A stretch of 64,000 nucleotides of DNA from Octopus vulgaris (taxonomy: Eukaryota). Location of the stretch: NCBI GenBank assembly GCA_951406725.2, contig OX597831.1, positions 17,298,001-17,362,000 on the forward strand, written 5' to 3'. The notes under the pieces are model-generated. The model was not told the DNA's origin. It saw only the letters and a list, made by a program, of their open reading frames with translations, and ran no database searches. This document shows positions 17,001-37,600 of this stretch, piece by piece. Position 1 is the first letter of the stretch. Every line of letters starts with the position of its first letter. A program made the position numbers and the translations under genes.

Positions 17001-20000
17001 GGATGTTGACTAACAAAGCATGAGTGCTACCTTTATCACTCTGAACAAGAGAAAACAACACAAATACAAGCAGTGGAAACACCGCTACAGACCTATTCCT
17101 AAGAAGGCCAAGTTGTTTCATTTGCAGGGAAAGTGGTTGACGCAGACTATTGTGATGCAAAGTAATTGTGCTTATTGACTACCTTCAAAACCGCCAGAGT
17201 AGTTTGCCAATTAGCTGAGGAACGTACAAGTGGCTATCAATAAAAGATTCCTAGAAAATTGCTACCAGCAAAAACGTCATTGCTTTCGATGGCTGCGGAT
17301 CTTTGGACTGGTTGATTACGCAAATGATTCCTCTGATCTGGTCCTACCTGGCTGATATCTACGCCCGAAAGTGAAGAAAAGAATACTGGGGTCCTTTATC
17401 TCTTTGACGGTGAAACGACATCCACTGTTGATGAAAATTTCGCGCAGCAGGATTAAGCTTTTTATCTCTGGGATCAATGCACGAAACCAGTTCTGGAAAT
17501 ATGAGTGAACTGCTATGTTTTACAATCCATCAGAGAATTCAGTGTGAACGTTTCAGTCAATTGTCTTATATTCATCTTCATAAATTAATGTTGCGATATA
17601 CCAACCAGTTTAGTGAGCTAATTCCTTATGACCTTCAATTTGAAACCGAAACATTAGTAGAAAGATTAGAGGGATTCAATAAATTCATCGCAAAGCAGTC
17701 AGTGTGACGCAAGATGACGACGACATACAAGTTAATCTCTGTTTAAGCGATGACTAATTCACTTATTGCTGCTTTATTAAGACGTAGTGCACAAGATATG
17801 AATCAAAACACTTCAGGCATAATAAACTTCTAGAAGCGTTGTATTAAGCCGCATGCGTTTCATATTTTATAACAACTTTTCGTGTCCTACAGTAATTTCC
17901 GAATTAGAGCAGAATTATTTCCTTCAAGTAGATAGCGTGTCAGTAAACGTAACAGGAAATCATAGTCTTTGTATCATAGTGATATCACGATTTATAAAGT
18001 AATGACATCTTTTGCTGTTATCTTGAACGTTGCAGAACAATAAACAATTTTGAAGAATTATTTACAATAAAATAACCTACCGGTTTTTTAACAGTAGTGG
18101 GTTTTTTCTGTAAAAAACAGAAAAAGAAAATGTACTTTCGGAAGTAAATCCTACAAATCCATATGAATTGTATGTCCACACATGCAGGTTAAAGTTATAC
18201 ATTAATTTTAACATACAAGGCTCATTATAAATATTCCTTAATATTCACGGCATGCCCATTGAGTAATTAGATGCAGTCATCAACTGTATCAACCTATCTT
18301 AACATTGCAAACTCTATTCGATCTGGGATTGTGAAAAAATTGTAATGAATTAAATGTAATGTAAATCTCCGTTTATTTACAGATATCCTGAAGTTAGGCT
18401 GAAAGGTATAATAACTGCTTGTGTTTATAGAAACGAGCATTTTGTTATCAGAAGCCAGTTGCTCTTGAATATAATTATGACTCATGATTCTCGTACGTAT
18501 GAAAATATTCCAATAGTGTCGATTACAATTAATAGTACAGGCACTCTCGTTACATAAAAATGTTAGTTTAAAAAAATAGTTTTATATTTACAAGAACAAT
18601 GGAACACAAAAACTTAATATAGTGATAACAACTGACTTACGGTACACCTGGTATTCGTTACAAACTCTGTACTACAATGAGGAGCGACGGAAGAGCGAAA
18701 GCAGTTTGCAAACTTTTCGTACATCCTGCAAAGGAAATTTGAGATGAAAACTCCAGAAGTACATATATATATATATATATATATATATATATATATATAT
18801 ATATATATATATATATATATATATATATATATATATATATATATATATGTGTGTGTGTGTGTGTGTATATATATATAGATACATAGGTAGATAGATAGAT
18901 AGATAGATAGATACATACATACATACATACATATATACATACATACGCATACAACAAAAACACACCCACACACACACACATATATATATATATATATATA
19001 TATATATATATATATATGTATGTATATATATGGGTGTGTTTTTGTTGTATGCGTATGTATGTATGTATGTATCTATAACGGGCATGGGACAACAATAAGC
19101 TGACCAAGACCACAAAAATGAAGATCTACCAGGCATGTGTACTCAGCACTCTACTGTATGGACGTGAGATCTGGACGCTATACACACGCCAAGAGCGTCG
19201 CCTAAACATCTTTCACCTGCGCTGCCTCTGAAAAATCCTCCGCATCAAATGGCAGAATCATATCCCCAACAAAGATGTCCTCAGGCAAGCAGGAATACCA
19301 AGCATGTTTGCACCCTCACACAAAGACGTATGAGATGGCTTGGGCATGTTAGCCGTATGAAAGATGGCAGAATCCCCAAGGACATACCCTACGGAGAGAT
19401 TGTTAGGGGTACTAGGTCTGTGGGTAGACCGATCTTACGTTACAAGGATGTTTGCAAAAGGGACATGAAGGCCTGCAACATCGATATTAGCGGTTGGGAG
19501 GTAATTGCCAGCAACCGTGGAGAATGGCGACGTACCGTAAAAGAGGGAATATAAAGGAGTGACATAGAGAGAGAAGAGAAATGGAAAGACAAGAAAAGAC
19601 GTCAACAAGAAACTATGACATTACAACCAGCCAGGAACAGTCTTCGCTACATTTGCGTTACCTGCCAGAGGGAGTGTTTGTCCAGGATAGGACTACACAG
19701 CCACAGCAGGAAATGTATCAGGACATGAAATGTAAAAGCCGGACTAGATTTTTTTATGCCAACAACAGCCATATATATTTATATATAAATATATATATAT
19801 ATATATATATATATATATATATATATATATATATATATATATATATATATATATATAGCGACGATAGATAGAAAACAGAAGACGAAGACAGGTGCTGTAC
19901 AAAACAAACAGATGTATTAGTATAACGCTCAAGAATAAAAAAAAAAACGTCTTTTATGTTTCGAGCCTGCGCTCTTCTACAGAAAGGGGCCCAGAAAAAA

Positions 20001-34600: not shown

Positions 34601-37600
34601 TTCTCTTTCACCTTCCACCTCTCTCTCTATCTCTCTCTTTCTTTCTATGCGTTACTTTCTTTTTCTCTTCATAATAACCTTGGTTTTTACTCTTCCTCTC
34701 CTGCCACTATCACGTGACCCGTAACAACCTAGGTTTGTTTTTTTCTTTCTTCGTTTACCATTGACCCGTTCCACCACGTTTCTCACTGCCCTTCACATTT
34801 GTCCTACATAGTTTATTAATCTTTTCCTCTGTTCAGACGCTCTCTCTGCCACACATGTGTCGCTAGACCTACAGGACGTTTATCATTTTCATTTCCGTTA
34901 CCCGTATTCCTCAGTCTAGCTGCTACACGTATACATTTCATGTATAATTATTATTATTATTATTATTATTATTATTATTATTATTATTATTATTATTATT
35001 ACTAATTTAATTTGTCATATTTGCTTTTGCTTTTCTCCTGCATGTTTGCTAGCTGTCCCTACTGTCCCTACTGTCGCCAAAATGAGGGAACTGTATGAAC
35101 GTCAACGGCGCGAAACCGTTGCTATGTCTTGAAAGCTGACTGATTAGAAATTATCTAAGGATGTTACTACTGTTATAATTTTATGAAATTTTACATTTCT
35201 TATGACTTTGTGACATTTTCCTTTGGCTATATTTTCTTCAAATATTCCATTTTGTATGTGTTTCTTAAATTTTCCGATTTTTTTCTTGTTCAATCATACA
35301 CACACACACACACACACACACGCACACATATACAGATGTACATGGTCTGATTAATTAATATCCAGAATGTTGACAGAGCTGAAGCATGCAGAGTGAATCC
35401 GCTTGGTACAGATTGACCACGATCTCGAACTCTGCTGAGAATGCGCACTAAGTCATATAGTTCTGGCTCATATCCGCTGCTTACATTAGTGCCTGAAATG
35501 CAGGTGTTTAGCGCGTCTTCTATTCATTGAACTTGGTAGAGAATGTTAAGAAGAGAATATGCAGCAAACTTTGCCAAACGCTTGGCGATAACTGCTTAGA
35601 GGTCTACAAAACATTTCACAAATTTTTCATCGTTCTCCACGAAATCGATGAGAAAATATGCAACTGAAACCCGAGTGAGCGGCTTTAGCTCGAACTTGGC
35701 AGATACGCGTCTCATACACAATTTCTCAGCGAGAAAGACTGGACTGAATTGAAACTAATCTGCTCATTATTTGCTTAATCACGGATGTTCGTCCGATTAT
35801 TTTCCGTCACATTTGCACGAACATTTGCGGTGTTTTTCTCATTTTTGCTGCTAACTGATCTCCCCGAGCGTTCGTCACTATCGGCCATCTTGGAAATGTC
35901 TGAAGCAATTGTACACTTCTGTCCGTCTTATTCGATACTCTCCATGCACTTCCTCCAAATTTACATAGACCTCTTATCACATATAACCATGACAACATTC
36001 TCTTTCAAGAAATACATACACATCAATGTATATATACGGTCGAGTATACTTATATCTATATATGCACATGTTTAATGTATATAATGAATCAACGAAACGC
36101 ATTTGCGTGTATTGTTTCAAGCGGTTCGGTACGAATATTTAGCTTGAGATATGCATAAGACACACGATACACACCGTCGTTTCAAGCACTGCTGTAAATA
36201 TCGGAGGTGAGCAACAGCGATAAGACGGAATGCGCATGCGCTGCTGATTTTAAGGTCAATTTCTGTGGCTTCACGCTGCGTGCTTCAGCTTTTCTACAAT
36301 CACAGCAGACATGATACTCATTAAACCAGACCCCATTTATATGTATGCGTGTGTGTGTATACACATACATACATACATATATAGATATATATTACAATTA
36401 ATAAGAGTAATGACCACTAGAGTGGATTCCTATATGCTAATGATTGACGTCAAATCGCCTTACCACGATTTTTTTTATCAAGAAAAAATTTCTGGCGTTT
36501 ACTGAGATTTTTTCTTGAGGACACACGCATCGTGGAATGGTGATTTGACGCCTATCCTTAGAATATAGGAATCCACTTTAGTGGTCATTTAGTTTATTAA
36601 TATAATATTTAAATCTTCGTTTTTAATATATATGTATATATATATATATATATATATATATATATATATATATATATATATATATATATATATATATATA
36701 TATATATACATGTATATATATGTAGATAGATATGTACATATACCCGCACACATACATACAAATACGCACACACACACACATACACACACACACACACAAA
36801 CACACACATTTATATATATATATATATATATATATTGATATATACCCACTTATAGACATATATATACGTATATGTATGTATATATATATATATATATATG
36901 TGTGTATGTGTGGAGATACCTCAATTAGTAGATATGTTTATGAATTGCAGAAATAATTATGTTTCGATTCATAACTTTAAAGATTATAATTGTAATAATT
37001 AGCACTTTATAAATCAGAGTTTTCTGAGAAGTACAATATAAGGTAGGCCAGTATATTATTAGTGGGCAGCAAACTGACTATTGTTATACAGATAAGTTTC
37101 GTCTAAACTTTAATGGAGACGTTATACACACACACACATATATATATAATACATATTATTTCGCCTGATGTCTATGCGCAATTAAATTTACATTTATATA
37201 ATCTTGACCAGTTTCAAATTTCGATGAAATATAATTTGCACGTATTTGATACTTACCAGCAGTTGTCGTGGTTTTTAACATAGTATTGATAATCTTTCTC
37301 ACACGATTGGTGCGCCAACGCTAAGCATTTCTTATCCACATCGGTGGTTGATGAACCTATACGTACGAAAAATCGTTTATAGTTCATAAAACCGCAGATA
37401 TTTATGTTAATATTTCGTGTTAACAGAGATTCCTAGCAGAAACCTCAGCAGCTGCATTTGGTAGAAGTTTCATTCCAGTTTGTAAGATACATCTTTCTGA
37501 AGATGCAGATATTAACTTCTCCATCATGCTTATGGATGATAGGAACACACACTCTCACACACATCTATTCCTTCTTGTGTGTGTGTGTATGTGTCTGTGT

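Follow-up and report, generated by a model that had tools for sequence, protein, structure and literature searches.

The locus analyzed here, a window of 64,000 nucleotides (nt) from Octopus vulgaris (GenBank assembly GCA_951406725.2, contig OX597831.1, positions 17,298,001 to 17,362,000 of the forward strand), raises the question of what a set of short cysteine-rich exons encodes. A reading of the letters alone (hereafter the sequence-only reading) had seen in them miniature folds like those of neuritin (CPG15), the N-terminal domain of RGM proteins (RGM-N), or DUF19, with a possible part in neural wiring or BMP binding. We searched the whole window by six-frame translation, joined exons at canonical AG/GT sites, and recovered three complete spliced genes, A, B, and D, which encode proteins of 111–113 amino acids (aa) with a common layout: a signal peptide, a six-cysteine domain, a short stalk, and a hydrophobic tail of the glycosylphosphatidylinositol (GPI) type. 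They appear to form an undescribed, fast-evolving cluster of octopus neuritin-like GPI mini-proteins within a wider mollusc family. A and B stand in tandem with a fourth paralogue on the minus strand (order C-A-B), and D, on the plus strand, converges on them. The positions of the complete genes, counted from the first letter of the window, are:

52890 to 25605, minus strand: gene A, 6 exons, 112 aa, open model
22076 to 14030, minus strand: gene B, 6 exons, 113 aa, open model
4084-11547, plus strand: gene D, 4 exons, 111 aa, open model

All six domain cysteines are present in 3/3 genes, with gaps of 7, 13, 8, 8, and 9 in A and B and of 7, 16, 8, 7, and 11 in D. The three cysteine segments singled out by the sequence-only reading are real, being the third coding exons of A, B, and D, but that of D lies outside the interval given for them (18641-37356). 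The pattern C-x-x-aromatic-E-x-F-x-x-C, which that reading ascribed to neuritin, holds for A and B and fails for D (2/3); the raw six frames contain 2 occurrences, where 100 dinucleotide shuffles average 0.01. A splice-anchored signature for exon 3, drawn post hoc from these same exons, occurs 3 times in the window and 0 times in each of 100 shuffles. Pairwise identities are 47/108 (A–B), 22/103 (D–B), and 24/99 (D–A). Against a null in which cysteine positions are held fixed, and with protein P0004 among the proteins compared, domain similarity exceeds chance for A–B, B–D, and B–P0004 (P = 0.001) and does not for A–D (P = 0.11) or A–P0004 (P = 0.27); it is thus B, together with the shared intron pattern, that ties D to the family. 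That pattern comprises a phase-1 intron within the signal peptide (3/3) and a phase-2 intron that splits the codon following Cys3, whose own codon ends exon 2 (3/3). Vertebrate NRN1 appears to have introns at both positions, in phase 1 within its signal peptide and in phase 2 within the codon that follows Cys3. If the latter correspondence is true, it would be the strongest sign of common descent.

A profile of exon 3, searched with HMMER against 1.84 billion representatives, returned four matches: three unrelated repeat proteins and XP_052830394.1, the product of the uncharacterized LOC128249882 of Octopus bimaculoides (RefSeq), which is the only true database relative found. Its alignment with spliced D runs the full length without a gap, with 73/111 residues identical (36/55 within the domain) and the cysteines at the same positions, and supports the splicing of D independently. 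Two further searches gave no additional relatives, and A and B have no record in three protein searches; automated annotation seems to miss small surface genes such as these. In the ESM Atlas the top matches are two unnamed mollusc clusters, one of 129 aa with 51 members (score 0.91) and one of 115 aa with 66 members (0.89), the likeness being one of length and feature score. Third comes Neuritin (PF15056), the best named family, at 0.84 with 148/256 features shared. By the Atlas calibration (a bar of 0.9, with about 170 shared features typical of true family members), the 0.91 cluster is a fair match and neuritin is a lead only.

Structure prediction agrees with the helical fold that had been proposed. 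An AlphaFold2 model of the mature domain of the O. bimaculoides protein, computed from a 7-row fragment alignment, is all helical and has no strands (predicted local distance difference test, pLDDT, 80.5; predicted template modeling score, pTM, 0.66), with helices at 2–11, 14–19, 26–41, and 45–58 and a short terminal helix. The hydrophobic moment is larger at 100 than at 170 degrees in 11/12 segments. The full-length model is of low confidence (pLDDT 45) and places strands in the C-terminal tail. Fold searches of structure libraries without predicted cellular structures turned up generic helical matches and no neuritin structure.

Past Cys6 the proteins continue for 37–40 residues, first as a stalk rich in Ser, Thr, and Lys, then through a triplet of small residues and a polar spacer to a hydrophobic end; there is no cytoplasmic domain. 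A rule-based scan of omega sites and hydropathy places candidate omega residues at Ser88 in A (24-residue propeptide; alternative 79), Ser86 in B (27-residue propeptide), and Ser79 in D (32-residue propeptide; alternative 84). Overall, propeptides measure 24–33 residues, with a mean hydropathy of 1.2–2.1 over the last 15. Ser79-Ala-Ala is retained in the O. bimaculoides protein as its sole omega candidate, and polar breaks in that tail suggest a GPI signal rather than a transmembrane helix. Judging from these tails, the proteins are probably lipid-anchored at the cell surface. They also diverge fast. Across the cysteine-domain exons of A and B, the proportions of nonsynonymous (pN) and synonymous (pS) differences are 0.38 and 0.44, and the corresponding rate ratio (dN/dS) is 0.82 (61 codons, about 36 synonymous sites). 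D-type proteins of the two Octopus species are 66% identical and paralogues 21–44%. A cysteine and aromatic scaffold is kept with the rest variable, as expected of either recognition molecules or relaxed duplicates.

We favor the view that these are fast-diversifying, GPI-anchored recognition ligands, distant relatives of neuritin in a wider unnamed mollusc family, and give it about an even chance of being correct. Several points weigh against it. For A and B, splice junctions were assigned from consensus sites and paralogy only. The C-x8-C-x7-C spacing that the sequence-only reading ascribed to neuritin and RGM-N is found in D (x8/x7) and not in A or B (x8/x8), that is, in 1/3. The octopus mature chain, at about 60–70 residues, is shorter than mature neuritin, given as residues 28–115 (88 residues) in a supplement legend of PMC10123642. 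The neuritin match falls below both the Atlas score bar and the typical number of shared features, and although the ten best family-bearing Atlas matches all share one family or clan, such 10-of-10 agreement is also seen in a third of shuffled proteins. The likeness to neuritin that has this best-named Atlas match in its favor finds no counterpart in Pfam: the check proposed for NRN1, RGM_N, and DUF19 gave no match to any, and P0004 gave no family at E ≤ 10, as full protein or mature domain, in a search whose HMMER filters discard most matches above about 0.1. The AlphaFold2 model is of the O. bimaculoides protein and comes from a shallow alignment, the GPI calls come from rules and not from a dedicated predictor, the 32-residue tail of D could be a transmembrane helix instead, and relaxed and positive selection are not separable on so few synonymous sites.

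A domain that did not descend from a neuritin ancestor, being DUF19/T20D4.11-like or a convergent mollusc-specific helical disulfide mini-domain for immune, epithelial, or gamete recognition, is possible but distinctly less probable. The closest Atlas clusters are unnamed and molluscan, no NRN1 profile matches, and the genes combine tandem birth-and-death, including a probably degenerate copy C, with 66% identity between species and a dN/dS of 0.82; such tandem turnover with fast divergence is typical of recognition and arms-race genes. This origin sits poorly, however, with neuritin as best named Atlas family, with the absence of DUF19 from the Atlas matches shown and from the Pfam results, with a neuritin-type motif in A and B far above chance in the window, and with a matching layout and a probably matching intron position. 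At the other extreme, the genes might be an octopus expansion of true functional counterparts of neuritin, activity-induced GPI ligands of neurons that promote the growth of neurites and the maturation of synapses. We consider this unlikely. The layout (PMC12715718, PMC6502786) and the Atlas lead speak for it, as do the expansion of other wiring families in octopus, e.g., protocadherins (PMC10084454), and, with low weight, the first four residues of the B tail, which equal neuritin 121–124 in a table of PMC3724992. But among human, mouse, and rabbit, mature neuritin varies at no positions other than 113/114 (PMC10123642, supplement legend), whereas the octopus proteins share 21–44% between paralogues and 66% between species, and Pfam again offers no NRN1 match. 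Counting the distant-relative and functional-counterpart readings together, kinship with neuritin is somewhat better than an even bet, and the octopus proteins are best described as neuritin-like in topology and probably distant kin, not as shown members of the family.

Two remaining alternatives carry little weight. Stand-alone RGM N-terminal domains serving as BMP/GDF co-receptors or decoys would fit the x8/x7 spacing of D and the Cys2-x-x-acidic-aromatic sequence of A and B, which is that of RGM helix 1. In RGM-N, part of a GPI-anchored protein, three helices form a bundle with three disulfides, and this domain carries the main BMP/GDF5 site, with an interface formed by an RGD/RGN loop between helices 2 and 3 together with Leu103 and His106 (PMC7354924). 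RGD/RGN is nevertheless absent from 4/4 proteins examined; RGMs have a vWD-containing C-terminal domain with an autocleavage site (PMC11488336), which is absent from the 37–40 residues past Cys6; and residues 53–136 of RGMB, its N-domain, fall in one exon (codons 46–215; PMC11488336, PMC7354924), as against the octopus intron after Cys3. No RGM chain in the PDB was matched at E ≤ 10 by a sequence profile. Missing loop, missing vWD domain, and differing exon structure argue that the suggested RGM-type BMP role is unlikely, and we hold the RGM identity itself to be very improbable. Least credible is that the resemblance is illusory and the exons belong to a beta-rich Ly6/uPAR-type protein or are chance exons or pseudogenes. 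Strands do appear in the tail of the low-confidence full-length model, A and B lack database records, and copy C looks degenerate. LU domains, however, carry 8–10 cysteines, not six, in a beta-rich three-finger fold, and the confident domain model (pLDDT 80) is strandless, so that the fold which the sequence-only reading had named as its refutation is not what is predicted. A, B, and D moreover have open reading frames and canonical splice sites, and one relative is annotated. This reading is largely refuted.

As distantly neuritin-related recognition ligands, the products would be surface proteins of about 60–70 mature residues in which three disulfides, formed by six conserved cysteines, close a predicted compact bundle of three main helices. 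GPI transamidase would replace the tail at the small-residue omega site (Ser88 in A, Ser86 in B, Ser79 in D), leaving the domain on the outer leaflet on its stalk, which spans 5–15 residues and is longer in A and B because phase-0 micro-exons have been duplicated there; shedding by anchor cleavage would be possible. Because they have no intracellular part, the proteins would act solely through a partner receptor, in cis or in trans. With the cysteine and aromatic core constant and surface residues changing fast, the paralogues probably differ in partner specificity. More speculatively, the cluster could be an octopus branch of the neuritin lineage, in which a plasticity factor nearly invariant in vertebrates has become a tandem, rapidly diversifying set of GPI-anchored tags of neuronal identity, equipped with alternative first exons and with stalk lengths tuned by micro-exons, that complements the expanded protocadherins. 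We think this improbable; if true, the neuritin family is older than the protostome–deuterostome split.

The exons of the three complete genes and of paralogue C are as follows:

52854..52890, minus strand: gene A exon 1, start codon ATG and signal peptide with a phase-1 donor, splice model
37257..37356, minus strand: gene A exon 2 (Cys1-Cys3), bounded by AG and GT, entered in phase 1 and left in phase 2
33671..33755, minus strand: gene A exon 3 (Cys4-Cys6; segment A of the sequence-only reading), six-frame translation, splice model, exon-3 signature
33091..33117, minus strand: gene A stalk micro-exon 1 (27 nt, phase 0), splice model
30521..30553, minus strand: gene A stalk micro-exon 2 (33 nt; predicted omega site Ser88), in tandem duplicate of the micro-exon-1 unit
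25605..25661, minus strand: gene A last exon, encoding the hydrophobic GPI-type tail and the stop, ATTAAA 12 nt past the stop
22972..23008, minus strand: second, open copy of the gene B signal-peptide exon, with a phase-1 donor, 29/37 identical to 22076-22040
22040..22076, minus strand: gene B exon 1 (ATG, signal peptide), splice model
20192..20291, minus strand: gene B exon 2 (Cys1-Cys3), splice model
18641..18725, minus strand: gene B exon 3 (Cys4-Cys6; segment B), six-frame translation, splice model, exon-3 signature
18081..18107, minus strand: gene B stalk micro-exon 1 (27 nt), splice model
15654..15680, minus strand: gene B stalk micro-exon 2 (27 nt; predicted omega site Ser86), splice model, omega scan
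14030..14095, minus strand: gene B last exon, encoding the hydrophobic GPI-type tail and the stop, where an AATAAA lies
4084..4123, plus strand: gene D exon 1 (ATG, signal peptide), product agrees with the XP_052830394.1 N-terminus
5768..5864, plus strand: gene D exon 2 (Cys1-Cys3), splice model, alignment of the relative
10900..10988, plus strand: gene D exon 3 (Cys4-Cys6; segment D), outside 18641-37356
11438..11547, plus strand: gene D last exon, candidate omega site Ser-Ala-Ala at 79, then a long hydrophobic tail and the stop
60695..60721, minus strand: paralogue C stalk micro-exon, paralogy and splice model
58796..58840, minus strand: paralogue C last exon, shortened hydrophobic tail (14 codons)

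An intron of 15.5 kilobases (kb) would separate exons 1 and 2 of A, whose exon-1 region is 66% identical over 545 nt to that of B. The tandem pair of intact signal-peptide exons in B may represent alternative promoters or first exons, and two exon-like stretches with AG/GT ends upstream of them on the minus strand (25023-24981 and 22620-22548) are possibly 5′ untranslated region (UTR) exons. The stalks of A and B are encoded by two phase-0 micro-exons in tandemly duplicated units that are 67–70% identical; in B, 14119-15724 is 70% identical to 16554-18156. An intron of A also contains a decayed duplicate of the last exon with its 3′ UTR (31040-30920, minus strand), and this remnant near 31000 shows that the whole 3′ module of A, micro-exon and last exon, was duplicated in tandem. 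The last exon of paralogue C stops three codons earlier than that of A, no A(A/T)TAAA was found within about 400 nt of it, and tblastn found no copy of exon 2 or 3 of C in the window, which does not include its 5′ part; C is possibly degenerate, a pseudogene, or the source of a secreted product.

The window is AT-rich (26–39% GC per 2 kb) and holds many microsatellites and transposon pieces. The last intron of A contains a degenerate non-long-terminal-repeat retrotransposon (29400-26850, minus strand) with a YMDD reverse transcriptase motif, a PD-type endonuclease motif, and (TAA)n on both flanks, which we take to resemble the microsatellite-targeting R4/Dong clade. About 1.1 kb upstream of the A start codon lies a frameshifted Tc1/mariner-like DNA transposon (55330-53980) with terminal inverted repeats and DDE-type motifs, its left end locally duplicated (53913-54064). 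Fragments judged by eye to be Penelope/GIY-YIG-like retroelements (37700-39700, 43500-46560, and 1925-2537 versus 41627-42308), some in large inverted pairs, make up much of the first intron of A. LINE-type reverse transcriptase 3′ fragments, also identified by eye, lie between D and B (12170-12990, plus strand) and in the second intron of B (19100-19700).

A text search of the literature, with most subscription journals outside its reach, found nothing joining neuritin and octopus and nothing naming LOC128249882; the uncharacterized octopus neuronal markers mentioned in PMC9815951 could not be mapped to A, B, or D. Neuritin has been studied as a vertebrate protein, and homology, if true, would mean that its fold and gene structure already existed in the bilaterian ancestor, and would supply a natural series of divergent minimal domains for mapping which surfaces matter. 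If homology fails, the genes still form an uncharacterized mollusc surface-protein family. For studies of cell recognition in cephalopods, the cluster offers a concrete candidate.

Among known systems, DUF19/T20D4.11-like proteins have a six-cysteine helical extracellular domain expanded in invertebrates, a likeness set against the Pfam and Atlas results above. RGM-N shares six cysteines, three main helices (predicted in octopus), a place on a GPI-anchored protein (probable in octopus), and, in D, the x8/x7 spacing; RGM, by contrast, is a protein of ~437 aa with an RGD/RGN-Leu loop, vWD and C domains, and an N-domain in one exon, and the octopus proteins are of ~112 aa, with no loop and an intron inside the domain. 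O. bimaculoides LOC128249882 is collinear with D and has the same cysteine positions and Ser-Ala-Ala site, and the Atlas mollusc clusters (129 and 115 aa) are similar in length; all of these are uncharacterized. As for neuritin, the motif (A and B) and probably the phase-2 intron after Cys3 (A, B, and D) are common to both, and the Cys2–Cys3 and Cys5–Cys6 intervals are shorter in octopus. Micro-exon stalks, tandem copies, and fast evolution set the octopus genes apart from a protein nearly invariant in mammals. Neuritin is made as a 142-aa precursor with a signal peptide and a GPI anchor (PMC12715718), the cleavage of which can release it to act on other cells (PMC6502786). Its layout of signal peptide, single small extracellular cysteine domain, and GPI tail is matched by A, B, and D (PMC12715718, PMC10123642), with the octopus tail assigned by rule.

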